From: an uncultured Candidatus Poseidoniales archaeon | GTDB taxonomy: Archaea; Thermoplasmatota; Poseidoniia; Poseidoniales; Poseidoniaceae | Direction: 5' to 3' | Length of the DNA stretch: 64,000 nt | Assembly: GCA_902520595.1 (NCBI GenBank) | Contig: CABYOM010000001.1 | Location: 528-64,527 of the forward strand | Shown: positions 8,711 to 59,746 of the stretch, piece by piece | Layout: every line of letters starts with the position of its first letter | Numbering within the stretch: position 1 is the first letter of the stretch | Notes under the pieces: model-generated | What the model was told of the DNA's origin: nothing | What the model saw: the letters and a program-made list of their open reading frames with translations, nothing else | Database searches by the model: none | Translations under genes and position numbers: made by a program

Positions 8711-8733
8711 ATTTTTTCACCTCATTATTTAGT

Positions 8734-33466: not shown

Positions 33467-35131
33467 TCACGCATCTGCCATGGCCTTCTCATCAGAAAGA
33501 CCTTTGAGTTCGACTGGATTCAACTCGATGATTGGCTGTGTTTTTGGATGGATTTTCAAGGCGAATTTCACGGGTAATTCTTTTTTCAATCGGATCAATC
33601 GCTTGTTTTCAGCAACGAGCTCTTCATTCACTTTTTGCATGTCTTCAACTTTCTGAATGAGTTCATTGACACGTTGTTCGAGCGCTTCACGTGCCGCAGA
33701 TTCCTTCTTCAGTTCTGATCGAAGCAGACGAGTTGTGTCTTCAATTTTGCCACCCAACTTCATTTGCAATGCTGCTCGAGCAGTGGATTCTTCCTTTACT
33801 TTCGTCGAAACCTGACTGATTTCTCTCTCAAGTTGGTCATGTGCACGAGAGAATTTATCCTTGATCGAATCAAAACTCTTACGGATTTGTGGAACCTTCT
33901 TTGACAACATATCATCAAGCTCACGGCTCAACTTATCGATGGTCTGGAACCGTGCTTCGAGAATATCATCCTCGTCTCCAAGTGCCTTGCGATGACTGTA
34001 AAGCAATCCTGGCATAATAAATGGAATTTCTTCCTTTCCTTTTACATTCTGGAAATAGCGCATTCGTGTCAAGAATTTATTGTACCGTGCTTCAAGGTCT
34101 TCACTGAGTTTTACAACCGCATTTGCAGATTGAGCATCTTCATTTCGTGCGGCTTTTTCCGAGATAAAAACCCCGTGTTCTTTTCGGAGCGGGTCAACAA
34201 CAACAGCGACAAAACGGCCGTCTTGACGGTTTGAGCGAAGATGGCCAAAGGTGTTGATATCAATTCCTGACAAGAAAATACCGATGTCTGGGTGAGTGTG
34301 AATCCATCCGATAATCTGAATGTTTGGAGTATGAGGGCCGCCACATCGACTGTTGGCCATATCACAAGCATCCATTGCCATAGCGAGAGCTCCTCCGTCA
34401 AATTCACAATACCCTGGACTTGCTTCAGTTTGTTTTGGAAAGAAACCACAGGTAACGACATTATTTCCATTATGGTCAATATGTCCAATCAACAAGCCAC
34501 CCATCTCAAGACGGCCGCGTGGCTGAGTGAACACTGTCGTTTGGTCAATAATTTCCTGAGGCACCAATGCTGGGTGGTCTTTCACTCGAGCCGTTCGGCG
34601 GCCTCCACCCGGAATACGTTGTGGAACGACAAAGAACGAACGGCCAATCATATCGTTGGCCATAAGATTGGATACAACTTCTTGGTGGTTATCGCGCACT
34701 TCTAAAGGAGAACCATCGCGAGGTCGCAGACCTGCTCTTTCAACGACCTGCATTACCGTCTCGCCAGGTTGTGGATTGATGTTATGTCGTGAACCATCTT
34801 GCATGATGAGGGTCAAATGTGCTTGTTTATTCGGGATTTCGTCAAGATCGATACCTTCGTCCCAATCGTCATCAAATTCAATTCCAGCCCCACCTGCAAC
34901 TTTCGCAACACCGACGTAAATGGTCGAGTCGCGATGCGCGGCAGCATTGTTATTCGAAATGACTGAACCCATCGCGTCATAAATGTCGAACTGTCCTTTC
35001 GGTGCGAGTTTCATATCCTGAACAGCTTGCTTCAGGGTGGCATTCTGAGGTACTTCGACCCGTTGCTTTTGGGTTTGATCAAGGGTGTTGGCTACAGTCA
35101 GGGGTATCATTTGGTTTTGCATGTTTTTCAT
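33467..35131 (-). CDS. Ubl-Ubl-JAB/MPN(JAMM) metalloprotease with C-terminal coiled coil
   Basis: Two beta-grasp-like units end in 'VAKVAGG' and 'VVPQRIPGGG'. The JAMM motif is complete: 'LEMGGLLIG' ... 'IIGWIHTHPDIGIFLSGID' (E, HxH, S, D). The last ~200 aa are heptad-rich. The likely true start is the second ATG (35122). Confidence 0.8.
   Translation of the reverse strand: MKNMQNQMIPLTVANTLDQTQKQRVEVPQNATLKQAVQDMKLAPKGQFDIYDAMGSVISNNNAAAHRDSTIYVGVAKVAGGAGIEFDDDWDEGIDLDEIPNKQAHLTLIMQDGSRHNINPQPGETVMQVVERAGLRPRDGSPLEVRDNHQEVVSNLMANDMIGRSFFVVPQRIPGGGRRTARVKDHPALVPQEIIDQTTVFTQPRGRLEMGGLLIGHIDHNGNNVVTCGFFPKQTEASPGYCEFDGGALAMAMDACDMANSRCGGPHTPNIQIIGWIHTHPDIGIFLSGIDINTFGHLRSNRQDGRFVAVVVDPLRKEHGVFISEKAARNEDAQSANAVVKLSEDLEARYNKFLTRMRYFQNVKGKEEIPFIMPGLLYSHRKALGDEDDILEARFQTIDKLSRELDDMLSKKVPQIRKSFDSIKDKFSRAHDQLEREISQVSTKVKEESTARAALQMKLGGKIEDTTRLLRSELKKESAAREALEQRVNELIQKVEDMQKVNEELVAENKRLIRLKKELPVKFALKIHPKTQPIIELNPVELKGLSDEKAMADA
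34886..35122 (-). repeat. Copy A of a ~237-bp near-identical duplication (Ubl-coding 5' end)
   Basis: Aligns with 35621..35857 at a constant offset of 735. I see only two mismatches (34889 vs 35624, and the atcctg/atactg change giving D to Y). Confidence 0.9.
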
Positions 35132-35194
35132 CTCCGTTTTGGGTTTTCAATTACTAATTTTGTGAAGTGTTTCTTATTCTGTTAAATTTGACAT
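35132..35194 (-). promoter_or_regulatory. Leader cassette 1: palindromic TATA-like motif (35180-35193) + GGAG RBS
   Basis: Minus strand reads TAG-ATGTCAAATTTAACAGAATAAGAAACACTTCACAAAATTAGTAATTGAAAACCCAAAACGGAGATGAAAAACATG. About 85-90% identical to 36310-36369. Confidence 0.5.
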
Positions 35195-35857
35195 CTAGGC
35201 GTTCAATAGATTTTGAATGTGATTGATGTAAGCACCAATCCGGCGAATAGGGTCGTTTCCAATTTGATTCAGATGTGGTAGAATCTGGCCATGACAAATC
35301 CAATGGCTTGGTTTATTGGTTCCTGGAAGCGTATTGCTTGAGCCTACTCCGTAGGAAACACTTGGCGTATTTCCATTAAAGATGGAGACACTGGGTCGTC
35401 GCGTGATTTGGTCGTGGTTGAGCACATATGCGTGAGGTAAGCCAGATGATGCGTTTGGGCAATGAATGGCAATTTGCCAAAAACCGTTACTGGTTTTTCC
35501 TTTGGATGGAAACTGAAGAGAAATCATAGAGGTATGAGTTGCGTTGGTATGAATTCGAACTGGGCGAAGAGATGGATACTCAACTTTGAGTTCTGCCAAC
35601 CGTTCACGCGGGATGCCTGAAGCTCCACCTGCAACTTTCGCAACACCGACGTAAATGGTCGAGTCGCGATGCGCGGCAGCATTGTTATTCGAAATGACTG
35701 AACCCATCGCGTCATAAATGTCGAACTGTCCTTTCGGTGCGAGTTTCATATACTGAACAGCTTGCTTCAGGGTGGCATTCTGAGGTACTTCGACCCGTTG
35801 CTTTTGGGTTTGATCAAGGGTGTTGGCTACAGTCAGGGGTATCATTTGGTTTTGCAT
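35195..35857 (-). CDS. Ubl-E2 (UBC-like) fusion protein
   Basis: The N-terminal 79 aa are identical, bar one residue, to Ubl1 of the JAB protein and end in 'VAKVAGG'. The remainder follows a UBC pattern: 'RERLAELKVEY', 'FWQIAIHCPNASSGLPHAYVL', 'SHWICHGQIL' (candidate catalytic Cys) and 'IGAYINHIQNLL'. Confidence 0.6.
   Translation of the reverse strand: MQNQMIPLTVANTLDQTQKQRVEVPQNATLKQAVQYMKLAPKGQFDIYDAMGSVISNNNAAAHRDSTIYVGVAKVAGGASGIPRERLAELKVEYPSLRPVRIHTNATHTSMISLQFPSKGKTSNGFWQIAIHCPNASSGLPHAYVLNHDQITRRPSVSIFNGNTPSVSYGVGSSNTLPGTNKPSHWICHGQILPHLNQIGNDPIRRIGAYINHIQNLLNA
35621..35857 (-). repeat. Copy B of the ~237-bp near-identical duplication
   Basis: See copy A (34886..35122). Confidence 0.9.
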
Positions 35858-35877
35858 ATTTCCATCTCCATGGGATT

Positions 35878-35988
35878 TCAGTTGTTGTTTTTTCGCGATT
35901 TATGATATCGGAAATTATTCGGATTCTTTTGATTCGATCGATTATCTCTTCTCTGTTTCTTTGTTTTTGCGTTCGCCATCTTTTTCAT
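35878..35988 (-). CDS. Tiny basic protein (33-36 aa), not in the ORF track
   Basis: Hand-translated as (MKK)MANAKTKKQRRDNRSNQKNPNNFRYHKSRKNNN*. It is preceded by the same GGAGATGAAAAAGATG leader and lies 21 nt after the acidic-protein stop. Confidence 0.4.
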   Translation of the reverse strand: MKKMANAKTKKQRRDNRSNQKNPNNFRYHKSRKNNN

Positions 35989-36009
35989 CTCCATTTTTAC
36001 TTCATATCG

Positions 36010-36309
36010 TCAATAATTGTTATCGTAATACTCTTCACGTTCATCGGGGGTGTCACCAGGCATGTCTGCATACTCAGCAGGTTCTTCTTCTGGATCGTAA
36101 GAGTCTTCATCTTCTTCGATATATTCGTCCCCTTCCTCGTAATCATCCTCGTAATCATCATCGTAATCATCATAGTCGTCATTCATGGTGTTCTGAGAAT
36201 CATCATAATCTTCTTTTGAGTCGTATCCGCGAGACTGATAGTAAGCGTCGTTGTTTGGGTTCATCTGGTTCGAGCGGTTATCATCTGAATGTTTTGACAT
36301 GTTTTTCAT
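36010..36309 (-). CDS. Hyper-acidic D/E/Y-rich small protein
   Basis: 99-aa ORF ('DDYDDYDDDYEDDYEEGDEYIEEDEDSYDPEEEP...') with its own leader cassette. Low complexity but on the correct strand with an RBS. Confidence 0.5.
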   Translation of the reverse strand: MKNMSKHSDDNRSNQMNPNNDAYYQSRGYDSKEDYDDSQNTMNDDYDDYDDDYEDDYEEGDEYIEEDEDSYDPEEEPAEYADMPGDTPDEREEYYDNNY

Positions 36310-36369
36310 CTCCGTTGGTTTTCAATATCTTATTTTGTGAAGTATTTCTAATTCTGTTAAATTTGACGT
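36310..36369 (-). promoter_or_regulatory. Leader cassette 2: motif 36355-36368 + GGAG RBS
   Basis: Minus strand reads TAA-ACGTCAAATTTAACAGAATTAGAAATACTTCACAAAATAAGATATTGAAAACCAACGGAGATGAAAAACATG. Confidence 0.5.
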
Positions 36370-36612
36370 TTAGCCATGACGTGGGCAAGACGAATCATTG
36401 CAACAGGCTCCGCAAGAATCGTTGATACAGTCAGCAGCAGCGAGATTACCGCAATCACATGTATCTGAGCACCCGCAATTGCAATTCTTGGAAGAAGAGC
36501 ATGTAGCCCCACCTGGTCCTTCATGGCATTCTTCATTAGCGGCAATACATGTGTCTCCACATGGTTTTCCGATACAGCATACTGGGTGTCCGTTATTTGG
36601 CATATTTTTCAT
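36370..36612 (-). CDS. Cysteine-rich small protein (20 Cys in 80 aa)
   Basis: 'PVCCIGKPCGDTCIAANEECHEG...NCNCGCSDTCDCG...CGACCNDSSCPRHG'. Has its own leader cassette. Metallothionein- or knottin-like composition; no family recognised. Confidence 0.55.
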   Translation of the reverse strand: MKNMPNNGHPVCCIGKPCGDTCIAANEECHEGPGGATCSSSKNCNCGCSDTCDCGNLAAADCINDSCGACCNDSSCPRHG

Positions 36613-36671
36613 CTCCGTTGGTTTTCATAATCTTGGGTTGTTAAGATTCCAGATAGTTGTTAAATTTGATA
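36613..36671 (-). promoter_or_regulatory. Leader cassette 3: motif 36658-36671 + GGAG RBS
   Basis: Minus strand reads ...TTATCAAATTTAACAACTATCTGGAATCTTAACAACCCAAGATTATGAAAACCAACGGAGATGAAAAATATG. The motif lies inside the 3' end of the upstream ORF. Confidence 0.45.
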
Positions 36672-37096
36672 ATCTCGGATAATGGCCGAGGATCGATACT
36701 TTCTCCTGTTTGTGAATCAAACAGTTTGTATGATGCTGATTTTCTATCTCTGTGCGCGAAAATTAGTCGTCCATGTCGATGCTTACCGTTCGCTTTGACG
36801 TGTTTGCTCCAAGAGATATAGAGTGCCTGAACTAAGATTGTTAATCCTGTAATGTATACGATACAATGAGAAAATAATCCAAATGAATTCAATACTCGAT
36901 CGGTAACTCGAATATGTTCTTCAAGATTCATGACTTCCTCGACCGTATTTGGGAATATGCTCTGACTGACAACTTCTGAAGTTAATTCAGAGATAATCTC
37001 GTGCCTGTTATCGGTCAAACTGAGTTCTACAATGTTTTGATAACCGCCTCCACAAGAAGCAATCACATCACTAATAATAAAAGACAATTTAAGCAC
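36641..37096 (-). CDS. Hypothetical protein with one central TM helix
   Basis: 151-aa ORF with a GTG start that overlaps the preceding small basic ORF by 8 nt. TM 'FSHCIVYITGLTILVQALYISW'. Confidence 0.45.
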   Translation of the reverse strand: MLKLSFIISDVIASCGGGYQNIVELSLTDNRHEIISELTSEVVSQSIFPNTVEEVMNLEEHIRVTDRVLNSFGLFSHCIVYITGLTILVQALYISWSKHVKANGKHRHGRLIFAHRDRKSASYKLFDSQTGESIDPRPLSEIIKFNNYLES

Positions 37097-37253
37097 CCAC
37101 CTTTGCAGTATGTTGTTTTACATCTTTCATGGTCAGGAGGTAGCTTTTCTCTTCTCGGAAGACTTTCCAAGAAGATTTATTTTTCTTGAAACGACGCTGC
37201 GTTTTCGGTTTGTTCATTGTACTCGTTTTTGTTTTTCGGTATGTTCGGGACAT
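37089..37253 (-). CDS. Small basic protein (54 aa)
   Basis: 'MSRTYRKTKTSTMNKPKTQRRFKKNKSSWKVF...'. The ATG at 37253 is preceded by GGAAGTGAACAAATG, the same RBS context as the 221-aa gene. Confidence 0.4.
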   Translation of the reverse strand: MSRTYRKTKTSTMNKPKTQRRFKKNKSSWKVFREEKSYLLTMKDVKQHTAKVGA

Positions 37254-37300
37254 TTGTTCACTTCCTTCATACAATGGCCTCAACCAGAAGATGAGTTTTC

Positions 37301-37314
37301 ATTAAAATTGACAA
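37301..37314 (-). promoter_or_regulatory. Palindromic TATA-like motif copy (TGTCAATTTTAAT on coding strand)
   Basis: Sits 47 nt upstream of the ATG at 37253, immediately after the stop of the 221-aa gene. Confidence 0.4.
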
Positions 37315-37318
37315 AAAG

Positions 37319-37984
37319 CTAGAATATCCAAGCCAATAACTCACCAGCATAGGACAATATACCGACGATGACCCAGACAAGGAGTGCTATAATTGCAATA
37401 AAGAACCAAATTATGAACTCAAGAATTTCGTAGATGAATTCGAATATACTGATAATAAATTCGAATACACTACCTATGAAGTTTGCAACTGCCACTAGAA
37501 AATCAACGAACGATACACCAACTTCCCATAGGAATTCTAAGAATGCCCAAATTTCTTCAAATATCGGCAGAAGGGCGTTGAAAGCAAAGTAAGCACCACC
37601 CAGGATTAAGCCCATTACGGTGACAAAAACGATCGCTTCGAAAATTTCTGGTATTGACGAAAGAATGTTACCAAACAGGGAATTTTTTTCTGCCTGAACA
37701 GGATTTTGAGGCCGTTCAAATCTTTGATTATTTTGACCTAATTCAATTCTCCGATTCTTTTTCCCATGCTTTTTACAATAACGTGAACTGCAACATAATC
37801 TGCATGAATTGGTAATGCAAGTGCGGCTACCGGTGTTCCCACATTTACATCGAGGCTGCGGGTTGGCAACTCTTGGTTTGATCATTTTCGGATTTATATC
37901 CAAGAGAATTTTTGCAGGGAAGGGATTGATTGATCCCGCATCGGGATTTTCAAAAAGGTCTGCAAGGTCAATCCCTTCTTCCAT
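37319..37984 (-). CDS. Cys-rich N-domain + multi-TM membrane protein (candidate effector)
   Basis: N-terminal 'CKCGNTGSRTCITNSCRLCCSSRYCKKH'. The C-terminal ~110 aa are very hydrophobic with reiterated 'FEFI' ('SVFEFIISIFEFIYEILEFIIWFFIAII'). Confidence 0.55.
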   Translation of the reverse strand: MEEGIDLADLFENPDAGSINPFPAKILLDINPKMIKPRVANPQPRCKCGNTGSRTCITNSCRLCCSSRYCKKHGKKNRRIELGQNNQRFERPQNPVQAEKNSLFGNILSSIPEIFEAIVFVTVMGLILGGAYFAFNALLPIFEEIWAFLEFLWEVGVSFVDFLVAVANFIGSVFEFIISIFEFIYEILEFIIWFFIAIIALLVWVIVGILSYAGELLAWIF

Positions 37985-38039
37985 ATGTTCACTTCCAATT
38001 TGTTGTTACTTTCTCATTCGATAACGAAGAGAAAAAGAA

Positions 38040-38052
38040 ATTAAATTTGATA
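38040..38052 (-). promoter_or_regulatory. Palindromic TATA-like motif copy (TATCAAATTTAAT)
   Basis: Sits 55 nt upstream of the ATG at 37984. An RBS-like GGAAGTGAACATATG follows. Confidence 0.4.
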
Positions 38053-38059
38053 ATGAATC

Positions 38060-38248
38060 TCACGCCGAGGAATGAGTGACGGAAAGGAGAACATGTCCAC
38101 ACTCACAACGAGGAAGTTCAATTCCTGTGAACACCATACGTTCTCTGTAAGCGCTGATATCAACGGGAATCTTTTGACCACAACGGCAAACCAGGATAGA
38201 AACCCACTTTCCTTGAGATTCGACTTCATCATCAATCCAAAGTCTCAT
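38060..38248 (-). CDS. Small Zn-ribbon protein (CxC...CxC), translationally coupled to E1-A
   Basis: 'MRLWIDDEVESQGKWVSILVCRCGQKIPV...LPRCECGHVL'. Its ATG (38248-38246) overlaps the E1-A TGA (38247-38245) as ATGA. Confidence 0.55.
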   Translation of the reverse strand: MRLWIDDEVESQGKWVSILVCRCGQKIPVDISAYRERMVFTGIELPRCECGHVLLSVTHSSA

Positions 38249-39801
38249 TCCATCCCCTCCGCCTTTGTGATTGATTGAGGGGGGGCATTCGTGTCTTCTT
38301 GGTCCCAAAGAGCATTTTCAAGTTGTTGAACACCGTCTTTTCGAGATACAATTCCCTGCGAAAGATTGCAATACACTTCATTATAACGCGCATTCCAATT
38401 GACCGAGCCAATACTCGAAATGTTTTGCCCTGTCAGGCGCTGAAGAGCAGAAATAGCTTGTAGAGAGCCTACAAAAGCGTTGGTAATGGCGAGTGAGGAA
38501 AGGGGTACTTCGCCATCTTCTTGACACGAATATACAACCTGGTCATGAGCAACTGAAGGACCATATATTTCGACTAAATTCGTATTTGAAAATTCGGTAT
38601 ATTGTGCAAACAATCCTGTGATTCCTCCGTTTACATACGGTTGATTTTTCCGAGCAGCGATCAAATCAGCAAGAACGCGAGGGCGCATTGCATCAAGACA
38701 GCCAAGAATAGCATCAGTGTGTTCAAGTTGAAGCCGTATTCCATCATCATTCAAAACCTCATAGTGTTGAAGAATGGATTCATCAGTGTCGAAAAGCAAT
38801 TCATCAAGGGCAAATCCTTCTTCTTCATCGGTTTCAACGGTGTTTTGAGGAGATTGAAGGAGGCCATCATGCAGTTCGTAAGCGATTGAAATTTCGGCGT
38901 CGGGAAGGTTGCGATTCAACCAGTCTTTAGCAGCTTCAATTTTTGGCCTTCCAATATCTGCTTCGGAAAAAATAACTTGCCGGTTGAGATTATGACGTTC
39001 AACTTCCATATCTTTATCGAAAACAAGAAGTTGCAGATCACTAAAATTAGAATTTTTTAATCCATTCACGATCGAATGCAGCGCCCACGTACCTAAGCCT
39101 CCTGCCCCAACGATGGTCAAATGACCTGAAGGGTTGGTCTTTGGTTCAGGGAGCGTAAAACGCATGACTGGAAATTTAGGATGAATATTTTCATCCCCAC
39201 CATACACCTGAAGTTTCTTGAGAAGTTCTTGTACCAAGGGAGTATCATCATCTAAACGCATCATTACTCGCTTATGGCCGGTTCCGTCATTTACAGAACG
39301 GATGTTGATGTGAGAATTAATTCCTTCAAGTTGGAAATCGAGATGATTGATACTTCCTTTCATCGAAGGCTCGTTCACCCGAACATTCACTGAAACGGAG
39401 ACTTTTGGCACATCGACTGGAGTGTAGCACTTGGCTCGTCGAAAAATCTCACTCCAAATCAAGCATGCTGAAAGAGTAGCTAGAGAGGGTTCAAAAATCG
39501 GATGAGCGGGTTTTTCGCAAGGTGTGCCGTCGAGAAATACGCCTCCTTGGCCATAGGATACAAGTATCATTGATGGGTCATGTTTCCATTCGAAATCTAT
39601 TGAATCATGAACCCATGAAAGAGTAAATTCCGAGCCTTCAGATTTACTCGGGAAATTCTTTACTCCCAATTGGTCAGCTAATTGCTTCATGGAGTGTTTC
39701 AATGCCTGTGGAATTGATTCCTCATCCACGAAAGTCACGTTTAGTGATTCTACTCTCTCTTGGTGAACCAGACCCCGTTGTCGACTAAAGATATCACTCA
39801 T
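38245..39801 (-). CDS. E1-like (ThiF/MoeB/UBA-family) adenylating enzyme A, two-lobed
   Basis: The C-terminal half has 'LTIVGAGGLGTWAL', 'DKDMEVERHNLNRQ', 'DIGRPKIEAAK', 'CLDAMRPRVL' and 'SCQEDGEVP'. The N-terminal half starts with the ThiF-type 'FSRQRGLV' but lacks GxGxxG. Its ATGA overlap with the Cdc48 stop places the start at 39801. Confidence 0.8.
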   Translation of the reverse strand: MSDIFSRQRGLVHQERVESLNVTFVDEESIPQALKHSMKQLADQLGVKNFPSKSEGSEFTLSWVHDSIDFEWKHDPSMILVSYGQGGVFLDGTPCEKPAHPIFEPSLATLSACLIWSEIFRRAKCYTPVDVPKVSVSVNVRVNEPSMKGSINHLDFQLEGINSHINIRSVNDGTGHKRVMMRLDDDTPLVQELLKKLQVYGGDENIHPKFPVMRFTLPEPKTNPSGHLTIVGAGGLGTWALHSIVNGLKNSNFSDLQLLVFDKDMEVERHNLNRQVIFSEADIGRPKIEAAKDWLNRNLPDAEISIAYELHDGLLQSPQNTVETDEEEGFALDELLFDTDESILQHYEVLNDDGIRLQLEHTDAILGCLDAMRPRVLADLIAARKNQPYVNGGITGLFAQYTEFSNTNLVEIYGPSVAHDQVVYSCQEDGEVPLSSLAITNAFVGSLQAISALQRLTGQNISSIGSVNWNARYNEVYCNLSQGIVSRKDGVQQLENALWDQEDTNAPPQSITKAEGME

Positions 39802-41987
39802 GGTATCACCCACTCGCCTTCATCATCATTATCGTCATCCCAATCGTCATCAAGAATCACATTCTTTTCAACGGAGGCAACGGCTCTCAACAAATGACGT
39901 GAAACGCGAAGACCTTGTTCCAAATCTTCTGTTTTCAGACATACCTCGGTCTTTTCAGCGATGCAGCGACGAGCTGAACAATGCTTGATTTGATCAATGA
40001 ATCCCTTCAATTCTGCACCTGTGGCTTTGTCTCTCAAACGAAGAACTGTGTTCAACCATTCTTGATTGGAAATAGTTGATGGAATATCTTCAATCTGGTA
40101 TTGGAAGAACTCAAAGAAGAGGTCATTGGTGAGTGGCCCAACCTCAATGGATTTACTGAAGCGCCCTGGGCGCAAAAATGCTTCATCGACCAGTTCGATT
40201 TTGTTGGTAGACGCCATAAGATAAATCCCATCTGCAGGCTTCAATCCATCCATCATGGTCAACAATTGAGCCACAACGGAACTCGAATGATGAGCACCTT
40301 CGGAATTATCTCGGTTTCGACCTACTGCGTCGAACTCATCGAAAAACAAGACAACTGGGGCGAGTTCTTCCGCTCGTTGGAACAATTCTCGAACAGCGCG
40401 TTCACTTTCACCAACCCACTTGGACAAGAAATCCGGTCCAGATACGGCCATGAATTGTACGTTTGCCAAACTCGCAGCTGCGCGACCAAGCATGGTTTTA
40501 CCAGTACCGGGCGGTCCGTGAAGCAGGACACCGCCGGAACATGAAAGACCGAGAGATGCATAGATTTCAGGATTGTTAATGGGGTGAACAAGGTGATCGA
40601 TAATCTCGCTTTTAGCACTCGCATGCCCAATCACAGCATCCATTTCAACACGGCCCATTGTTGCCGGACGGCGTTGCTGTGTTGCCCAAGGAGTAAATTT
40701 CTCAAATGCTTGTTCAAAGTCTACAGTCAAGATTTTTAGCCCTTCTAGTTCCCTTTCAGTGAAGTTTTCAGGATTCGTAAGTCTTGGCAGACCGAACTCA
40801 CGATGAAGTCCTTCACCACTCGCATGGCGGCACAAGTTCGCCAGGTCTGCACCGGTGCAGCCTACTGTTTTCATAGCCCAATCGGAAAGGGAAACTCCTT
40901 CCAATGGCATGTTTTTAGAATGTATTTCAAGGATTTTCTCACGGCCATTAACATCAGGATAAGGGACGTGGATTCGGCGGTCAAACCGGCCTGCACGAAG
41001 AAGGGCGGGATCAATTGTTTCGAGAAGATTTGTCGAACCAACGACCAAAACTTGCCCTCGGTCTTCAAACCCATCCAGTTGAATAAGAAGTTCAGTCAAT
41101 ATTCGCTTTTCAAGTTCACCACGACTGTTCTTACGGTCTCCGGCAATAGCATCGATTTCATCGATATAAATGACAGAAGGAGCTTCTCGCTTCGCTTCAG
41201 CAAACTTTTCACGAAGAGCTTGTTCAGAAGCACCGTATACACCACTGATAATTTCAGGGCCACTGATACAGATAAAATTGCATTGAGCCTCTCGGGCTAA
41301 AGCACGTGCAAGGAGCGTTTTTCCTACACCGGGCGGGCCGTAAAGAAGTATTCCTCGCGGAGGTTCCTGTCCCGATTTAACATAAATTTCAGGGTGGATA
41401 AGTGGTACAATTGCAATCTCTTTAATCGCTTCAATGGTTTTGTCAAGTCCACCTATGTCATCAAAAGAAACCGATGGGACATCAATAATTGAACGTCGTG
41501 ACTTTTTACCAATAATTTGGATGTCGATGTCAGGGGTGAGCCAACCATGCTGTGGGCGGCAACGTGTAACTTGAAGTTCGAGTGGCTCTCCATTCAGAGA
41601 AACTGTAAAGTGGTCATCTTTGGAAAGATAAACATCACGAATTGCCGCCTTAACGAGGGGCATTTCGTGGTCTTCGAGGGAACGAGTTGTAGGTTGAATT
41701 CGGACCTTAGCAAATGGGCCTTGAACCTTGAGGTGATCAATCTCAACGGAATCGCCTTCATTGATTTGCGCGTTGATTCGAAGAGTAGGCCCAAGGGCAA
41801 CTGAATCGTAAGGAATGTTCGGGTCGTATCGCAAAACCGCAACCGTGGTTTTTTGGCCTATAATTCGTACAGGGGAACGGCTCGCATAACCGTTGTCTTC
41901 AGCCGCTTGCGTATTCATGTAAACATCGTCTCCAGCTCCGCCATCAATCATTGGTGCAATACAGGTAAATTGGTTCATAATAATCAT
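39798..41987 (-). CDS. Cdc48/p97/VAT-like double-ring AAA+ ATPase
   Basis: N-domain pattern ('VRIIGQKTTVAVL...RINAQINEGDSVEI'). D1 has 'LLYGPPGVGKTLLARA...VIYIDEIDAI'. D2 has 'LLHGPPGTGKTMLGRA...VLFFDEFDAV'. The acidic tail is 'DDDWDDDNDDEGEWVIP'. Confidence 0.88.
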   Translation of the reverse strand: MIIMNQFTCIAPMIDGGAGDDVYMNTQAAEDNGYASRSPVRIIGQKTTVAVLRYDPNIPYDSVALGPTLRINAQINEGDSVEIDHLKVQGPFAKVRIQPTTRSLEDHEMPLVKAAIRDVYLSKDDHFTVSLNGEPLELQVTRCRPQHGWLTPDIDIQIIGKKSRRSIIDVPSVSFDDIGGLDKTIEAIKEIAIVPLIHPEIYVKSGQEPPRGILLYGPPGVGKTLLARALAREAQCNFICISGPEIISGVYGASEQALREKFAEAKREAPSVIYIDEIDAIAGDRKNSRGELEKRILTELLIQLDGFEDRGQVLVVGSTNLLETIDPALLRAGRFDRRIHVPYPDVNGREKILEIHSKNMPLEGVSLSDWAMKTVGCTGADLANLCRHASGEGLHREFGLPRLTNPENFTERELEGLKILTVDFEQAFEKFTPWATQQRRPATMGRVEMDAVIGHASAKSEIIDHLVHPINNPEIYASLGLSCSGGVLLHGPPGTGKTMLGRAAASLANVQFMAVSGPDFLSKWVGESERAVRELFQRAEELAPVVLFFDEFDAVGRNRDNSEGAHHSSSVVAQLLTMMDGLKPADGIYLMASTNKIELVDEAFLRPGRFSKSIEVGPLTNDLFFEFFQYQIEDIPSTISNQEWLNTVLRLRDKATGAELKGFIDQIKHCSARRCIAEKTEVCLKTEDLEQGLRVSRHLLRAVASVEKNVILDDDWDDDNDDEGEWVIP

Positions 41988-42021
41988 TCCATCTTGTTAT
42001 TTCTTTGAGATTCTAGTTTTT

Positions 42022-42035
42022 TGTTAAATATGATA
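42022..42035 (-). promoter_or_regulatory. Palindromic TATA-like motif copy (TATCATATTTAACA)
   Basis: Overlaps the last codons and stop of E1-B, 34-43 nt upstream of the Cdc48 start. Confidence 0.35.
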
Positions 42036-43568
42036 TTTGCAAGGTTCATCAAACCAAGGCGGCTGGGTTGGAGCGAATTGTTCAATCTGTCCTTCGAACC
42101 AGGTGCCTCGGAAATTACGATCTTTGTAATCGGGATTCAAATTCATCATCGTCAGTAAAGCCATCATAGAACCAACCCATGCCGTTGAAGTCACAATTGA
42201 AGCAATTGGTCGAATACCCTCTTCAGTACAAGAGATTACTTCGCTTGAGCGAGCGTTTTCTTTACCATAACGGCAAACCATGCAACCTTTTTGACCGAAG
42301 GTTTCAACGACTCCATGAAGTGCTTCAGTTGCACCATTTATCATGACACGCCCATTGTTAATTGCAGCCTCATTCAGAATTGTTCGAGCGACCATGTTGT
42401 CAAGACAAGCGAGATATATGCTGCTCTTACTTAATGCGTCAAACAACAGTGAAGGTTCAAGCCCGAGGTCATCAAACTCTTCCTCAAAATCGAAATCCTC
42501 TTGCACCAAATGATGTGGAGTGAGATACTCAAAATACGATTCAACATGAATCTTGAGATTCAGTGATTGGAGCTGTTGAGCAGCGGTCAATGCTTTCATT
42601 GAACCAACGTGGGTTTCATTGTAGAGTACTTGGCGATTGAGATTATGAAGTTCTATTTCTGCATCGCCATCGACAACGTGAATCGTTCCTTCTTCCATCT
42701 GCTCAACAAGTAAAGGGGCGCTCCAACTGCCAAGTCCACCTGCTCCCAAGAGGACGATATCATGACCAGAAAGAGACCATGAGGAATCGAATACCTCAAC
42801 AGGTGCATCCCATGGGATCAAACCCAAATCATCTGAAACTGAAAGTTGTTTTTGCGAAGACTGCATCGTTCGAGAAAGGAAATCAAAAGGACTCAAGTTT
42901 GGTTGAGTCGATGGTCGATATCGAGCAAGTGTCGCATGACCATCGCTGGTTAATTGCACGTCAACCAGTGTCCCATCAATTCCCGTGATATGTTTTCTCA
43001 CTTCTTCAAAGTCCGTAGATTCAACGCGGCATGTGACTGTAAACCATGCGTCGCTAATTTTCATGTGGGCCATACAATCAGCATCTCGAAGCATTTGTTG
43101 TAACATTGTTGCAGCTACAGCCACTCGCATCGATGGAGTAAGAACATGCTCTGAATAAATGGGGGATGGCGAAAGAGGTTGACGAGAAATTTTCGCTCGA
43201 ACTCCTTTCGCATAACCATAAAGATCAGCATGTTGAATGGCATGTGACGGATTCAGGCAAAGATGGTAGTCAAATGAAAGAGGTTCAGATTCTTTTAATG
43301 AGGTAAAGGTCTGACGAAACTGAGGACTTTCTTGCTCCCAATCCTCCCATCGCTTCGCGTTTGGAAAAGTAAGTTTCCAAAACACAGAATCCGGCAGAAC
43401 ATTTGGTCGGAGTACTCCGATGAATCCTGACTCTTGCCCTATACCAAACTGCGAGAGGAGAACAAGAAGGTCGCTTACGCCACCAGAGCTTCCAGAAACG
43501 AGTATTTTCAGATTTGAAACTTGTTCTTGGTCAACAAGACCTCGTTGGCGTCGATATTTATCATTCAT
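42024..43568 (-). CDS. E1-like adenylating enzyme B, two-lobed paralog
   Basis: 'YRRQRGLV' then degenerate 'ILVSGSSGGVSDL' in the N-lobe. The C-lobe has 'IVLLGAGGLGSWSA', 'DGDAEIELHNLNRQ', 'CLDNMVARTIL', 'GCMVCRYG' and 'SCTEEGIRP'. The start is taken at 'MNDKYRRQRGLV'. Confidence 0.8.
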   Translation of the reverse strand: MNDKYRRQRGLVDQEQVSNLKILVSGSSGGVSDLLVLLSQFGIGQESGFIGVLRPNVLPDSVFWKLTFPNAKRWEDWEQESPQFRQTFTSLKESEPLSFDYHLCLNPSHAIQHADLYGYAKGVRAKISRQPLSPSPIYSEHVLTPSMRVAVAATMLQQMLRDADCMAHMKISDAWFTVTCRVESTDFEEVRKHITGIDGTLVDVQLTSDGHATLARYRPSTQPNLSPFDFLSRTMQSSQKQLSVSDDLGLIPWDAPVEVFDSSWSLSGHDIVLLGAGGLGSWSAPLLVEQMEEGTIHVVDGDAEIELHNLNRQVLYNETHVGSMKALTAAQQLQSLNLKIHVESYFEYLTPHHLVQEDFDFEEEFDDLGLEPSLLFDALSKSSIYLACLDNMVARTILNEAAINNGRVMINGATEALHGVVETFGQKGCMVCRYGKENARSSEVISCTEEGIRPIASIVTSTAWVGSMMALLTMMNLNPDYKDRNFRGTWFEGQIEQFAPTQPPWFDEPCKYHI

Positions 43569-43572
43569 TTTA

Positions 43573-44127
43573 TCACCGGGTTCGAGCGCGATCATCGGGG
43601 TTTGGATTTTTCAATACATCCTCAATTTGATGCAACAAAAAACCTAATTTTTCCTTCTCTGTTTGATAGGTTGCAAATTGTTCAGAAAACCCTGGGCCCA
43701 TACACACCCCACATATTTCTCTTTGAGGAAGAATGTTGTATCTCCCTTTTTCAAAGATATTCTCGTGTAAAATATTCTCACACTTTGGTGTCAAAATGAA
43801 TACCTGTGGCGCTTCTGAAAAGGAACGTGAATCAATAAGAATTTGATAGTTCATCGCGGTGTAATCTCGGCTTGAGACAACACCCTGAAGATTGACAACA
43901 AAAGCTCCTACTGTGGTTTTTGAACTGTGGTCACGAATTAGATTAAGCGAAGGGTAAGAAGTTAATTTAAAACTATCAAACACTGCTTTCGATAAACTCG
44001 AACCCGAACGAACTCGAAGAGGGACAAGGTACTCATTCCGACTGTTTTCTCGGCTTCGCTCTGCCTCAGATGCTCTACGCAGAAAATCGCCATTGCCATT
44101 AAAAATTCCATATTCTTCATTATCCAT
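43573..44127 (-). CDS. UBC-fold E2-like ubiquitin-conjugating enzyme
   Basis: 'NYQILIDSRSFSEAPQVFILTPKCENILHENIFEKGRYNILPQREICGVCMG...LGFLLHQIEDVLKNPNPDD' follows the E2 core pattern: Y.i.i...P.v.f, H(P)N(I), a catalytic Cys, and ..LL..PNPDD. The track start is a GTG at 44136. Confidence 0.7.
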   Translation of the reverse strand: MDNEEYGIFNGNGDFLRRASEAERSRENSRNEYLVPLRVRSGSSLSKAVFDSFKLTSYPSLNLIRDHSSKTTVGAFVVNLQGVVSSRDYTAMNYQILIDSRSFSEAPQVFILTPKCENILHENIFEKGRYNILPQREICGVCMGPGFSEQFATYQTEKEKLGFLLHQIEDVLKNPNPDDRARTR

Positions 44128-44170
44128 ATTCTTCACTTCACTTTTTTGATTTCTTGAAACCGTTTCATAT

Positions 44171-44184
44171 CATTAAATTTGACA
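44171..44184 (-). promoter_or_regulatory. Palindromic TATA-like motif copy (TGTCAAATTTAATG)
   Basis: Overlaps the stop of the 369-aa gene, 43 nt upstream of the ATG at 44127. Confidence 0.4.
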
Positions 44185-45282
44185 AGAGGGGTGAGTTCTT
44201 GGCACACCTTCAATTATCAACATACGCTTATTCGACGCATTGCGTGATATCCTAGCCACGGCCCATTGCCCCTTGGGATCAACCGAGATTCCAGGTTTCA
44301 AAGCGTAAGACATCTTAAGAGGGGAGTTTGGATGATGAATATTGTACAATTGGATAGGTTCCTCTGACTCAGGAACCTTGACAAAGACATAATGCCCATC
44401 TTGGTAATACGGTCGATTCACTAATGCAGGAGAGTTTTTCCGAGCGAAACGGACGAGGACTCCCTCACAAGATGCCCCTTTTTTCGGAGTGTTTCCTGAG
44501 ATGAGAGCACGTTGCCAACCGCCCGAGGGTTGGAGAACACTGCCTTTGAAGATACTTTGATTCTCTTTCGCTACCGAAGGAATCTTCATTTTACATGGAA
44601 CTGGTTTAATCTTCATTTTGTTGTATTTCTTGCCTATTTTGGGTTGATTGTTGTGCGGTTTGAAGCTAGATGGAACTGGTGTTAGGTCTGGACGGAAGAC
44701 CACGGTTTTACTTGCCTCCGCGTTACGAATTTCGCAGCATCCCCAAAATCCTCGAATACGTTCAATATCGGCGCATTGATAATTCACTTTGATATCTTCT
44801 TGTCCTGTTTGAGGATTGAATAGCGATACTGTATTTCCTTTTCTTGGCGCTTGTGCAAAGACGATGTCTCCGTCTAGATACGGTTCTCCTTCAGTTCGAA
44901 AACGGTACGCATAGGTACCATTTTTTTGATTACGAGGCGTGATGAATACATTGATGTAATCTCCAACCTCAATTCCTGGAATGATAAGTTTGGTTCCATC
45001 CAAGCATTCAGTTCCTGTAAAAGGGCCTTTCAAATTTGTTTCGCCCCAAATTGATTCTACGCGCTTCAACATCCCCAAATGGATCGTAGTCGGTGCTTTT
45101 CCTACGAGTTGATGGTTCAGTGAGTTTCCATGTTTATCCATAGCATACCTCAAACTACCATCTCGAGGTAAAAGGCCAGATTGACTCATTGCCTCATATA
45201 CAGTTGAAGTTTCATCCACGAGAACACGTGTTGAAAGGGTCTCATTTGAATCAAGAATAAACCTCACTTCTCGTAGAGACAT
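44173..45282 (-). CDS. Ubl-domain protein with beta-rich repeat region (possible substrate adaptor)
   Basis: The N-terminal ~75 aa are beta-grasp-like and similar to Ubl2 of the JAB protein ('GLLPRDGSLRYAMDKHGNSL' vs 'GLRPRDGSPLEVRDNHQEVV'), with no terminal GG. The rest is unrecognised. Confidence 0.5.
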   Translation of the reverse strand: MSLREVRFILDSNETLSTRVLVDETSTVYEAMSQSGLLPRDGSLRYAMDKHGNSLNHQLVGKAPTTIHLGMLKRVESIWGETNLKGPFTGTECLDGTKLIIPGIEVGDYINVFITPRNQKNGTYAYRFRTEGEPYLDGDIVFAQAPRKGNTVSLFNPQTGQEDIKVNYQCADIERIRGFWGCCEIRNAEASKTVVFRPDLTPVPSSFKPHNNQPKIGKKYNKMKIKPVPCKMKIPSVAKENQSIFKGSVLQPSGGWQRALISGNTPKKGASCEGVLVRFARKNSPALVNRPYYQDGHYVFVKVPESEEPIQLYNIHHPNSPLKMSYALKPGISVDPKGQWAVARISRNASNKRMLIIEGVPRTHPSCQI

Positions 45283-45375: not shown

Positions 45376-47046
45376 ATGCAATTATGCCTCGTAGAATTTT
45401 CTCGTCCCAACAAAGATTCTGGCGAGTACTTTTCAGTAGATTTTACCGACGCAGTATCCAATCACGAAGTTGATGAAATCATTCTTTTCCAATCGACAGA
45501 CCACGTTTGCAATGAACTTAGAGAGGAGTTGGAAGCGAAATTCCCACAAGCAACCATCCGCCTTGAACAACTTGAACCAATTTCAACTGACATGATCATG
45601 CATGAGATGATGCAGCTGCCATGGAATTTATTGCGACAGATTCTTTCAAAACTTGACGAAAGTCAAGACTCTCTATTTGTTCTCGGTCGTGGCACAAGTC
45701 TGCATCAGCATGTCATGTGGCTAACTGCTGAAATTCGAGGAAGCAAGATTATTTCCATCGATGAGCCGAATGTTGAACTCTTTCATGTTGGCTCTTCAAG
45801 AATAAATACAGAGATCGCTAAAGCAACCCTTGGGGCGTTCGTTCGTCTGCATGTTCAGGAAATCAATGAAAACATTACTGGTAAAAATGGCTGGTTCAGT
45901 GCGAATGATATTTCAAAGTTGCCTGGTGCTGTTGCCTCAGGAATAAACGCAGCAACACAACTGGCCTTGAAAGAAGGGTATTTGCTTAAAGAAGACACAA
46001 CATCCGGTAATACAGTGTACAAATTAACTCCAAAAGGCTGGACTCTGTCCCTAAAAAATTACATTGAATCGAAAGGTGTTGAAGATGAAGGTTTGAAGGA
46101 GATTTTGATTTCTTTCGCCCGACTCCCAAAAATAGCGTCTGCAGTAGGTCACAATGCACGACCACCACTCCTTACCTCGCAAATTTCTGCTGCGGGCATT
46201 CACGATGGTTTACTGGTCGTTCTTCAAAAAATAGATGATTCAATTGAGGGGTCGCACGTAATGACACTGGATGAAGCGTGTGATTTTTTCACAGAGCCAG
46301 AACTTGTTGGGGATCTGAGGGCCGCACAAGAAATACTACGGCAAAGGTGTGTTTACGATTGTGTTGATGTGAAAAATCACTTGGTCGTCATTAATCCCGT
46401 CTATGGAGAAGATTTTCAATTGCTCTTCTCAAAACATCTTCTTGCTGTTCTTGAAGATTTTGAAAAGCAATACGGCCGCCATCACTGGAATTTTGACATT
46501 ACAAGTCCAGTGAATCAGATTAAGCCTGCCGTTTCATCTTTCTCAAACGTTACGAAAGCCTCAACATGCTACATTCTCAAGTCTAAAGGTGAAAAAGGAG
46601 CAGTAATAGAAAAAGTCGAACTCTCTCGACACCCTCGCTATTCCCACAAACTGTCTGTTCCAAACTGGGGAGCCCTTGAGATAATGAATACAAAAATCGC
46701 TTCTGGGTATCGGAATGTTCTAGTTGCACTCATGCTCCTCGAAAATGTAAATTCCAAGAAATCATCAAACAGCCTTCCGTTTGACGATGTGGAAGAAGAA
46801 AATTTTGATGGCGTGGAGTGGTCTGAAATTGTTACTTTTGTTCAAGATTTGAAAAGCCCATATGACCTCAAGAAAGGAATCATCACTGGAAGCTCAACTC
46901 GAATGAAAAAACTCATTCAATCAAAACTTGTTCGTCGTAATGTCGCTGATGAAGGGTCTTCAGTTCACCGCTTTTCACTCACCAATGAAGGCTACCTTGT
47001 AGCAAGTCAACTGTATGGCGACATTAGCCGGGAGGGGATGGCGTGA
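45376..47046 (+). CDS. Tandem CARF-like + winged-helix regulator (Csa3-like architecture, duplicated)
   Basis: The N-terminal Rossmann-like unit has 'VDEIILFQSTD' and 'LFVLGRGTSLHQHVMWLTAEI' (the GGT-type CARF loop). wHTH-like stretches are 'EGYLLKEDTTSGNTVYKLTPKGW' and 'KLVRRNVADEGSSVHRFSLTNEGY'. A second Rossmann-like unit lies between them. Confidence 0.4.
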   Translation: MQLCLVEFSRPNKDSGEYFSVDFTDAVSNHEVDEIILFQSTDHVCNELREELEAKFPQATIRLEQLEPISTDMIMHEMMQLPWNLLRQILSKLDESQDSLFVLGRGTSLHQHVMWLTAEIRGSKIISIDEPNVELFHVGSSRINTEIAKATLGAFVRLHVQEINENITGKNGWFSANDISKLPGAVASGINAATQLALKEGYLLKEDTTSGNTVYKLTPKGWTLSLKNYIESKGVEDEGLKEILISFARLPKIASAVGHNARPPLLTSQISAAGIHDGLLVVLQKIDDSIEGSHVMTLDEACDFFTEPELVGDLRAAQEILRQRCVYDCVDVKNHLVVINPVYGEDFQLLFSKHLLAVLEDFEKQYGRHHWNFDITSPVNQIKPAVSSFSNVTKASTCYILKSKGEKGAVIEKVELSRHPRYSHKLSVPNWGALEIMNTKIASGYRNVLVALMLLENVNSKKSSNSLPFDDVEEENFDGVEWSEIVTFVQDLKSPYDLKKGIITGSSTRMKKLIQSKLVRRNVADEGSSVHRFSLTNEGYLVASQLYGDISREGMA

Positions 47047-48236: not shown

Positions 48237-48256
48237 GCAGAAGAGGGGGTGAAGAA

Positions 48257-59600: not shown

Positions 59601-59746
59601 TCATAGCACTTTCACCAATGGGACTATTCACAAACTTTGGAATCTTTTCCGCTGCGATGATTGCATTCTCTTTAGTTGCAAGTCTGGTCTTAACCACTGC
59701 CGCACTGGGATTGGTTGCCCGTAAACCTTCAGCGGAGGCATCGTGA
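56627..59746 (+). CDS. RND-superfamily (MMPL/SSD-type) exporter
   Basis: Two 5-6-TM bundles, each with 'G(I/V)(G)IDD/Y..H...RY(K/R)EE' ('LGIDDSLHALHRYKEE' and 'VGIDYCIHVTERYREG'), separated by large soluble loops. Confidence 0.7.
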   Translation: MSGSFARFAKWLIPHRKRVHVSVFLLSILMIPGVLTALQPIDMESYEMDSPELEAQAIIDDEFSNSEIILGFLVSARDPNYVPAIEDWSPVARMSDGAPDYSSLPSVTEMLDAGEPWGGINAPTAGIMNLTLLQEIDHKVDLVQEHPLSKAMKPLVNDVTGNQAPGAISLSDHFRGFMNGSSILTQPGLTTLGIVTDPPTNWTDCGVLECLEFDDENVTQQHIDMAAARMAEASDNNFLRWLSLDRGFVADMNALQTGPVGGSLNSNGTWQDAFVANGRWSASSTWLLVQLDRGTLEEMGWEVIWKDALQEKSLDFSEDGVKIGGYRVADGTLVLHPPQYTEEYCIELMEEEGTGCSTEWSYMDLEGHLRSNDRTTITLLLGQGVNVEVNRELQASAGLVILMGLAIVGLLYVSLRRVSDVVIVMFALGTALVWMQGMIGHFSTITSWFGISIIARSQFSNLLPILVLALGIDDSLHALHRYKEERLKGKTSHVSAEITLQRVGRAICLTSVTTMAAFAANLFSDIAVLRSFGIEAALGIFSAFLLTGLWVPMIRLSVDEWLVKRGKSIEEKSGVTHLVPEEWLQSIALNSGTFRKSALIATIAFLLTVPAAWGMAQLEGDFAVEDFLDERSDFAIGVYEISERFADEGEPANLLIEGDVLDPEVFAAIDVFRQNMDVLPEGVPDKITRQPDGTIDILALDEMVIAAQGSLVLDPTPFEAAGWQVNETGHGMNCSTAGSGPLMDLTDRECLAFFYGFLSLNGVPGIGPIPDIPPSIVALYIAPAVELDPTQPWLDVNGDAAAYERMLIRFGMTAPEDFPGMAGGMEEVWRDLSPFTNLSTGDQLEAGEVSEDEPLTWVMPTGRPVTRFVASTTMQSEMQSSLGLGSLFVFITLSIGFRSFKQATVTLVPILLVVVWLYGLMYMAGSSLNIVTVTIATISLGVGIDYCIHVTERYREGRESGESHDEALIGIGGACGLALIGSAASDIAGFSVIALSPMGLFTNFGIFSAAMIAFSLVASLVLTTAALGLVARKPSAEAS

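Follow-up and report, generated by a model that had tools for sequence, protein, structure and literature searches.

The 64,000-nucleotide (nt) stretch of contig CABYOM010000001.1 analyzed here, referred to below as the window, belongs to assembly GCA_902520595.1, a 1.42-Mb metagenome-assembled genome (MAG) of an uncultured Candidatus Poseidoniales archaeon that is 70% complete. On its minus strand the window carries a tight block of genes which, in reading order, encode an E2-like protein, the adenylating enzyme E1-B, a Cdc48-like ATPase, a second adenylating enzyme, E1-A, and a 62-amino-acid (aa) four-cysteine protein, here called Zn62; the coordinates of open reading frames (ORFs) are positions in the window unless another locus is named. 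The 729-aa Cdc48-like gene (39798..41987, minus strand) is a second, specialised Cdc48/VAT double-ring AAA+ gene and constitutes an integral, co-inherited part of the surrounding island, which is a horizontally mobile, patchily distributed island for the conjugation of ubiquitin-like proteins (Ubl) in Poseidoniales (Marine Group II archaea).

The 729-aa protein is placed in the Cdc48/VAT family by two Pfam AAA matches (E 3.6e-82) together with the lid, and its best sequence match in the PDB is Thermoplasma VAT (E 2.3e-140), with Cdc48/p97 next. Its AlphaFold2 model (predicted local distance difference test score, pLDDT, 80.6) aligns to full-length p97 over approximately 729 columns (E 4.5e-67, about 30% identity), and the domain layout comprises an N region (residues ~5-165), D1 (~175-435), D2 (~450-700) and an acidic, Trp-containing tail (703-729) with predicted disorder starting at residue 703. 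The N region, modelled with a pLDDT of 83-89, gives sub-threshold Pfam matches (CDC48_N, E 5e-4 and 20.6 bits against a cut-off of 35.1; CDC48_2, E 0.037), while several members of the clade formed by the island copies have precomputed PF02359 matches; on the strength of the model, the N region is a Cdc48 N domain (double-psi barrel and beta-clam). The motifs of D1 (GPPGVGKT, IYIDEIDA, LRAGRFDRR) and D2 (GPPGTGKT, LFFDEFDA, LRPGRF) are conserved through the island clade, a motif survey of which found Walker A, Walker B and arginine fingers intact in both rings, and the pore loops, x-Y-G in D1 (VYG, TYG or QYG) and K-W-V-G-E-S-E in D2, are invariant in the Poseidoniaceae part of this clade. Judged by these motifs, both rings look active and the protein looks a competent unfoldase. 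Mean identity within the island clade amounts to 0.39 for the N domain as opposed to 0.71 for D1 and 0.63 for D2, the corresponding value for the housekeeping N domain being 0.78, and such fast divergence of the N domain is the pattern that would be expected of a recognition module. Matches of the ATPase to the PADLOC models IetA and TRIP13 were treated as generic AAA similarity and not as membership of those systems.

A canonical housekeeping Cdc48 of 741 aa, with strong CDC48_N (E 1.3e-25) and CDC48_2 matches, is encoded elsewhere in the same genome on contig C12, together with a PAN-type ATPase on contig C10 and with genes for the alpha and beta subunits of the 20S proteasome (C4 and C27), which are unlinked to the island. 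All other island-bearing genomes examined (11/11) also have a housekeeping Cdc48 and a PAN of their own. Because the housekeeping Cdc48 is present separately, the island gene represents an extra, specialised copy. The island and housekeeping (C12) proteins share 38-48% identity, in two matching pieces, and in trees a single clade with 100/100 support unites the island Cdc48s of both families in which they were found (Poseidoniaceae and a sister family), those of the related loci L012 and L043 included, and leaves out the slowly evolving housekeeping Cdc48s of the same genomes; on sequence grounds, the 729-aa protein is not an ortholog of the organism's housekeeping Cdc48. A preliminary description of this stretch, made from its letters alone, had named as its own refutation the possibility that this gene was the only housekeeping Cdc48 of the organism, located here by chance and without the same linkage in relatives. 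Given the second Cdc48, the PAN and the 20S genes elsewhere in the genome, we reject this hypothesis; the linkage, moreover, is kept in all informative relatives from two families.

Linkage was assessed in those loci whose contigs reach far enough. The order E2-like, E1-B, Cdc48-like, E1-A is kept in every Poseidoniaceae locus with enough flanking sequence (the window, L006, L007/L016, L008, L010/L011, L019, L021, L022, L023, the partial loci L005, L009, L018, L024 and L025, and the 190-kb contig of P0017), and the trio of E1-B, Cdc48-like and E1-A is also kept in the contexts of P0014, P0017 and P0110. L043, a contig that diverges further (44% identity), carries a ThiF gene and a small gene ahead of its Cdc48-like gene and a second ThiF gene after it, with a 4-nt overlap. 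Across 9 loci, the pairwise identities of the three proteins (Cdc48-like, E1-A, E1-B) correlate with one another (r = 0.95-0.97), and the three genes have therefore diverged together. A further arrangement was observed in L012 (ENA scaffold, 3-5342), where an E1-B-like ThiF gene is followed by a 197-aa gene that overlaps the start of a Cdc48-like gene by 4 nt and then by a 522-aa protein without Pfam match; the Cdc48-like protein of this locus (711 aa, 39% identity) groups with the sister-family island clade.

The two ATGA overlaps that the preliminary description reported are exact. In the minus-strand sequence ...gagtgggtgataccATGAgtgat, the E1-A ATG (39801-39799) overlaps the Cdc48 TGA (39800-39798) within positions 39798-39801, in the context ...ccATGAgt, and in ...ggcggaggggatggaATGAgactt the Zn62 ATG (38248-38246) overlaps the E1-A TGA (38247-38245) within 38245-38248, in the context ...ggaATGAga. 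The 3' end of the organism's own 16S rRNA reads ...GGAUCACCUCCU, and both junctions are preceded by a Shine-Dalgarno (SD)-like element that is complementary to it and embedded in the upstream coding sequence. The first coupling signal (39798..39811, minus strand) consists of GGGTGAT (39811-39805), lying in W-V-I codons and spaced from the E1-A ATG by three bases (acc), and the ATGA at 39801-39798; the second (38245..38260, minus strand) consists of GGAGGGGAT (38260-38252), likewise spaced from the Zn62 start by three bases (gga), and the ATGA at 38248-38245. Further upstream in the block, the E1-B SD, GGTGAT, contains the stop of the E2-like gene, and the gap between E1-B and the AAA gene measures 36 nt. 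A 4-nt overlap taken alone is ordinary here, at least four more pairs of long ORFs in the window being joined in this manner (9747-9750, 22950-22953, 47043-47046 and 59743-59746), and it is because of its conservation across related loci that the overlap goes beyond chance: the NTGA overlap between Cdc48 and E1-A is kept in 11 of 12 related loci with an E1-A identity of 46-88% (nine ATGA, two TTGA), surrounded in these 11 by a near-invariant TGGGTGRTWCC, and an NTGA overlap between E1-A and the next gene is found in 12 of 17 loci.

Marine metatranscriptome contigs from four runs belonging to two studies cover the block at 91-97% identity to the window, indicating that the block is transcribed in seawater. 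The junction between E1-B and Cdc48 is bridged by one contig (41410-42731), that between Cdc48 and E1-A by three (39439-39974, 39588-39993 and 39605-39993) and that between E1-A and Zn62 by two (38175-39213 and 38102-38301), which fits a single transcript of the block. With the overlap, an SD in the upstream gene and the bridging contigs all present, the arrangement has the features expected of a translationally coupled operon, as far as can be judged from sequence. The overlapping starts and stops each have their own SD, and the Cdc48-like, E1-A and Zn62 proteins are therefore probably made together. The fixed stoichiometry or shared complex that had been suggested in addition may exist; the suggestion is drawn from gene overlap, which is common in this genome.

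The C terminus had been described as differing from a canonical HbYX tail, so that docking to the proteasome could not be assumed, and this reading holds: the protein ends in ...EGEWVIP, with no penultimate Tyr. Most Poseidoniaceae copies terminate in W-V-[VI]-P, preceded by an acidic stretch with Trp, a G-Y-[AV] terminus occurs in one island subclade only (P0011, P0013, P0016 and P0017), and the tails of the sister-family Cdc48-like proteins are unrelated. In L022, which lacks the overlap, the protein ends in ...EWDDNEDF, the acidic and aromatic character surviving there. The housekeeping Cdc48 of Poseidoniales (L002 1081-3306; L031-L041) has a conserved ending, ...G-[IM]-E-[ST]-[MV], which is also non-HbYX, and a PAN homologue (L004 1012-2313) ends in ...ALYG.

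The genes that flank the ATPase in the block belong to a conjugation cascade. The first gene of the block (43573..44136, minus strand) encodes the 187-aa E2-like protein, with an H-x-N-I-F ... C signature resembling the HPN...Cys motif of UBC proteins, and in all related loci a homologue, often carrying a Ubl at its N terminus, lies ahead of E1-B. E1-B (42024..43568, minus strand) is a ThiF-type adenylating enzyme (Pfam ThiF, E 5.4e-35) with an N-terminal domain of approximately 270 aa, whose start is likely to be Met10 of the long ORF, since relatives align from residue 10 and an SD and ATG are present there. E1-A (38245..39801, minus strand) is a ThiF-type E1 of 518 aa (Pfam ThiF, E 6e-23) with an N-terminal domain of approximately 225 aa; its PDB matches (MoeB, UBA3, SAE2) span residues ~225-320 only, and it retains GxGxxG (IVGAGGLGTW), HNLNRQ, CLDAMRPR and an invariant SCQEDGEVP containing a candidate catalytic Cys, so that a Rossmann-type nucleotide loop and the adenylation-site Arg and Asp are in place. 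The zinc ligands (CxxC and the C-terminal Cys/His) are gone from all Poseidoniaceae E1-A proteins and are kept in the sister-family E1-A and in E1-B, where the site comprises a CxxC and a C-terminal CxxH (GCMVCRYG ... C-x-x-H-I).

Several relatives were observed to carry, after E1-A or Zn62 and often ATGA-coupled, a protein of approximately 230 aa with a ubiquitin-like G-x-x-P-R-D-G segment, situated C-terminally in L007 (11500-12192), L008 and L022 (95-805) and N-terminally in L013 (10697-11392); this protein is without Pfam match and is absent from the window. In the sister-family genus g19 an extra single-ring AAA ATPase with a SAP domain lies between E1-B and the Cdc48-like gene, either as a separate 362-aa gene overlapping the end of E1-B (L026 2996-4084, minus strand) or fused in frame to E1-B in a 942-aa protein composed of ThiF, SAP, AAA and lid (L014 9596-12421, minus strand). 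The fusion is a possible Rosetta-stone hint of an association between E1 and AAA proteins and, through SAP, of a link to DNA.

Zn62 (38060..38248, minus strand) was delimited as a CxC-24-CxC protein by alignment of 8 homologues, in all of which C21, C23, Y34, R35, P46, C48, C50 and G51 are invariant. It had been called a Zn-ribbon, of which the invariant four-Cys CxC...CxC pattern stands while the zinc ribbon itself is unproven: the sequence has no Pfam, PADLOC or PDB match, and the AlphaFold model, beta-rich with a pLDDT of 79, gave no significant match in a fold search against the PDB (best E 0.8) or BFVD (viral; best E 0.13). The nearest zinc-finger fold in the PDB, Kti11p (TMq 0.44, E 1.1), is likewise not significant. 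A profile search of 1.84 billion representative proteins returned 7 matches, two of them remote (75-77 aa), and one remote member, P0152 on a Tara Oceans scaffold, follows an E1-A of 53% identity with an ATGA overlap. Zn62 occurs only in Poseidoniaceae loci, always directly downstream of an E1-A that lacks the zinc site; a hidden Markov model search over all loci did not find it in those of the sister family, and the L007/L008 lineage has a zinc-less E1-A without Zn62. The clade that has Zn62 is the clade in which E1-A lost its zinc ligands, and therefore Zn62 may supply in trans the zinc module lost by E1-A, a suggestion built on a single clade-level coincidence.

The block forms part of a wider Ubl cluster (33467..45282, minus strand), delimited by ORFs, by JAB matches in Pfam and PADLOC and by synteny in relatives, which includes a Ubl-E2 fusion (35195-35857, minus strand) whose Ubl, the first ~80 residues, ends in GG, a Ubl-JAB fusion (33467-35131, minus strand), a 369-aa protein with a Ubl-like domain at its N terminus and small Cys-rich or transmembrane proteins. 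GC content is 0.35-0.45 from approximately 28 to 56 kb of the window, compared with 0.47-0.50 in the flanks. Homologues of E1-A were found in 18 of 401 sampled genomes of the order, distributed over 8 of 26 genera and including 3 genomes of the window's own genus, and E1-B was restricted to this order in a phylum-wide sample of 401 genomes. A viral or proviral origin was rejected, E1-A being without a relative among IMG/VR contigs.

One neighbour of the Ubl cluster matches the PADLOC CARF_PDDEXK model, and the adjacency of a 765-aa gene to the cluster recurs in L007, a relative of 48% identity. Four genes divergent from the Ubl block (45376-56180, plus strand) encode proteins of 556 aa, 397 aa (Cys-rich) and 593 aa and a 2049-aa P-loop/helicase-like giant, and these recur beside the Ubl cluster of relatives (compare L013 5259-9186 and the context of P0017). 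An archaeal-type Pus10 gene is also present in the window. Window ORFs 33467-35131, 36010-36309, 36370-36612 and 43573-44136 begin with identical residues, M-K-N-M, shared starts that point to a leader or promoter cassette possibly repeated along the cluster.

Relatives of E1-A were also found in Paractinoplanes brasiliensis (L042; SNWR01000001.1 6463581-6485296) and on a metagenomic contig (L044), which share an operon. It encodes a Ubl of 82-83 aa with a short tail after its ...VGG, one E1 and a pair of E2-like proteins, followed by a protein of 304/354 aa, a JAB protein and, at its end, a double-AAA protein of 696/710 aa. This Ubl/E1/E2/JAB operon is homologous to that of the island, its Ubl included: the E1, which is the single one in the operon, has 30% identity to E1-A, the E2-like proteins carry an H-x-N-[IV]-[FW]...C motif as does the 187-aa protein of the window, and the 696/710-aa protein combines a Cdc48-like N domain with two AAA domains. 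The AAA and JAB genes share 4 nt in L044 and are separated by an IS110 transposase in L042. The differences from the island lie in the one E1, in a degenerate D1, with an altered Walker B (LDDID) and no D1 pore loop, and in other neighbours. Upstream of the actinobacterial operon, genes for OmpA-like, Ser/Thr kinase, ClpB-like AAA_2, FHA and radical-SAM-like proteins were observed. The tree does not support a shared origin of the actinobacterial AAA with the island clade, the former having a very long branch and an unsettled placement in it; the association of Ubl and AAA genes may have arisen independently twice, and two independent origins would, if anything, make a stronger case for a functional link.

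Taken together, these data lead us to a proposal for which we see about even chances of being correct, namely that the island Cdc48 serves the Ubl system as its unfoldase, recognising the tag via its variable N domain and acting without a proteasome. Under this proposal, the two E1/E2 pairs would mark targets, probably proteins of an invading virus or element, with the Gly-Gly Ubl of the island; the N domain, of the fold that in p97 binds beta-grasp UBX and ubiquitin modules, would recognise the tagged proteins; the predicted hexamer, as the ATP-driven unfoldase arm, would thread the substrate past the pore-loop Tyr of D1 and the pore-loop Trp of D2; and the JAB peptidase would recycle the tag, with no docking to the proteasome being assumed. 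Two candidates for elements that dock to E1-A or assist it are Zn62 and the acidic, Trp-rich C-terminal tail of the ATPase. A more elaborate version, which we consider speculative and rather unlikely in its entirety, envisages a self-contained antiviral tag-and-unfold machine, in which the two E1/E2 pairs would tag viral or hijacked host proteins, the Cdc48 hexamer would be docked to the E1s by its acidic Trp tail, Zn62 would replace the lost zinc module of E1-A, the N domain would read the Ubl and tagged assemblies would be dismantled without a proteasome.

A number of observations weigh against this proposal. Direct coupling between Cdc48 and E1-A is limited to the Poseidoniaceae. The sister family keeps the Cdc48-like gene within the cluster and adjoining E1-B, but E1-A lies about 3-4 kb downstream, past three other genes (597 aa and 397 aa, both without BLAST match to the similarly sized window genes, and 294 aa), and is coupled to neighbours of its own. 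Even within the 12 loci compared for the overlap, L022 is an exception, with a 150-nt gap between Cdc48 and E1-A, and in L006 (FRAM18_bin100 MAG, 7808-10004) a frameshift near 9013-9030 breaks the Cdc48-like gene into two overlapping ORFs (409 aa and 375 aa), which could make it a pseudogene or reflect an assembly error. The metatranscriptome contigs are unstranded, and DNA carry-over is possible. W-V-[VI]-P was not accepted as a conserved docking motif: its conservation cannot be credited to the protein alone because the same last codons contain the SD of E1-A together with its start. An adaptor resembling Ufd1/Npl4 could not be recognised. A defence role for the island is suggested by gene context only, and the reading of the neighbouring 765-aa gene as Cas10-like is unconfirmed, there being no Pfam, PADLOC or PDB sequence match for it. 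Finally, the actinobacterial AAA falls outside the island clade in the tree.

Among the alternatives, the one that survives best, although we think it doubtful, is that the ring acts as a remodeller or regulator internal to the system, with components of the island itself as substrates instead of tagged targets, by splitting E1-E2-Ubl or auto-conjugated complexes or by presenting the Ubl-E2 and Ubl-JAB precursors for cleavage, either of which would turn the system on or off. An analogy is available in TRIP13, which disassembles HORMA-cyclase complexes in type III CBASS, and TRIP13 models are indeed among the PADLOC matches of the ATPase (E 1.8e-24); these and the IetA matches, however, are the generic ones set aside above, the protein is of the two-ring Cdc48/VAT type with full unfoldase pore loops, and no HORMA-like partner is present. 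Such a role would agree with the position of the gene between two E1s and its coupling to E1-A rather than to JAB or an effector, with the occurrence of the Ubl only as N-terminal fusions that need processing, and with the SAP-AAA of g19, which sits between E1-B and the Cdc48-like gene and is fused to E1-B in one genome. The very fast N domain, on the other hand, would suit variable external targets better, the E1s co-diverging with the ATPase yet staying alignable.

It is less probable still, and in our view unlikely, that the island Cdc48 is a proteasome feeder, binding to the 20S of the host in the manner of archaeal Cdc48.20S and handing over Ubl-tagged proteins to be degraded, in what would be a compact pathway of ubiquitin-proteasome type. 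The genome does encode both the alpha and the beta subunit of 20S, binding to 20S is known for archaeal Cdc48 and for actinobacterial Cpa, the latter without a classical HbYX (PMC6017811), turnover of TBP2 in Haloferax uses UbaA, Cdc48c, JAMM2 and 20S (PMC4895103), and the subclade of P0011, P0013, P0016 and P0017 has, in its G-Y-[AV] ending, the penultimate Tyr typical of HbYX. Against this, the window protein and most of the clade have acidic endings without that Tyr, the sister-family tails bear no relation to these, the proteasome genes are unlinked to the island, and the tail is predicted to be disordered, with last codons constrained by the overlapping E1-A start. It is very improbable that the gene is a chance neighbour, that is, an ordinary housekeeping Cdc48 paralogue that came to lie among Ubl genes with overlaps owing to a compact genome: Cdc48 paralogues are frequent in archaea and 4-nt overlaps are common in the window, but each genome examined has a housekeeping copy distinct from the island one, the linkage persists in two families at protein identities of 37-56%, the island copies form a clade of their own, and the 383 of 401 genomes of the order that gave no E1-A also lack the gene, which tracks the island where it was looked for.

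Returning to the unfoldase proposal, the arrangement is a variation on prokaryotic Ubl conjugation operons and on Cdc48 as a Ubl reader, both of which are known already. The main reader of ubiquitylated proteins in eukaryotes, which both extracts and unfolds them, is Cdc48/p97. With the eukaryotic system of Cdc48/p97 and Ufd1-Npl4 the island Cdc48 has in common its N-D1-D2 architecture and intact ATPase sites in both rings, and it is tied genetically to an E1/E2/JAB Ubl cascade; it differs from p97 in being encoded within a conjugation operon, between two E1 genes, in having a D1 pore loop Tyr like that of archaeal VAT and in lacking the ...DDLYG/HbYX-like tail. VAT is also its closest solved sequence relative, and Cdc48 paralogues are tied to Ubl modification in Haloferax, where turnover of Ubl-modified TBP2 genetically needs UbaA, Cdc48c, PAN2, JAMM2 and 20S (PMC4895103) and SAMP1 associates with Cdc48a in a SAMP1-Cdc48a-RecJ3/4 complex (PMC10470531). 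The Cdc48 genes of the Haloferax SAMP system, however, do not share an operon with the E1, and that system is without an E2, whereas the island, patchily distributed, has a separate, fast-evolving ATPase clade, two E1s, E2-like proteins and Ubl fusions.

The Bil (BilABCD) and Bub (6E) systems resemble the island in co-encoding Ubl, E1, E2 and JAB, in having a Ubl pre-processed at Gly-Gly and in their accessory or defence-island setting. Matches of the island proteins to the PADLOC BilD, E1-E2 and JAB models are weak (E 4.6e-8 to 1e-2) and concern the nucleotide-binding part only. The papers that define prokaryotic Ubl operons, Bil and Bub mention no AAA+/Cdc48 component (PMC1779556, PMC10557695, PMC11601596). 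Relative to these systems the island adds two large E1s with extra N-terminal domains and a Cdc48 paralogue. In the Pup-proteasome system, Pup is disordered, unlike a beta-grasp Ubl, PafA is a ligase resembling glutamine synthetase and not an E1/E2, and Mpa is a single-ring ATPase with coiled-coil/OB domains which docks on 20S. These differences notwithstanding, that system (actinobacteria; Pup, PafA, Dop, Mpa/ARC, 20S) is likewise a cluster of a tag, a ligase, a de-tagging enzyme and a dedicated, tag-reading AAA+ unfoldase, while actinobacterial cpa is linked to psd/pssA and not to Ubl genes (PMC6017811). The preliminary description had seen in the partnership of an AAA+ segregase with a Ubl cascade a direct prokaryotic counterpart of the eukaryotic one, which stands insofar as the ATPase is a dedicated partner of the cascade, yet it is not the first of its kind, being preceded by Pup-Mpa and by the Haloferax TBP2/Cdc48c case (PMC4895103). 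In the searchable literature on Poseidoniales or Marine Group II archaea and ubiquitin, nothing relevant was found and the arrangement is not described.

For the evolutionary question of how and when an unfoldase and a tagging cascade became partners, the island offers a natural case: a complete E1/E2/Ubl/JAB cascade and a dedicated Cdc48 paralogue that are inherited, transcribed and probably translated as one archaeal unit. The partnership is directly testable with recombinant proteins, and a counterpart operon exists in cultivable actinobacteria. If the unfoldase role is correct, the recently discovered ubiquitination-like defence systems of prokaryotes would gain an arm for ATP-driven unfolding, in abundant uncultured marine archaea, and should the more elaborate tag-and-unfold machine also prove true, then together with the actinobacterial operon it would mean that the eukaryotic partnership of Cdc48 and ubiquitin has prokaryotic, conflict-driven counterparts, perhaps even antecedents.

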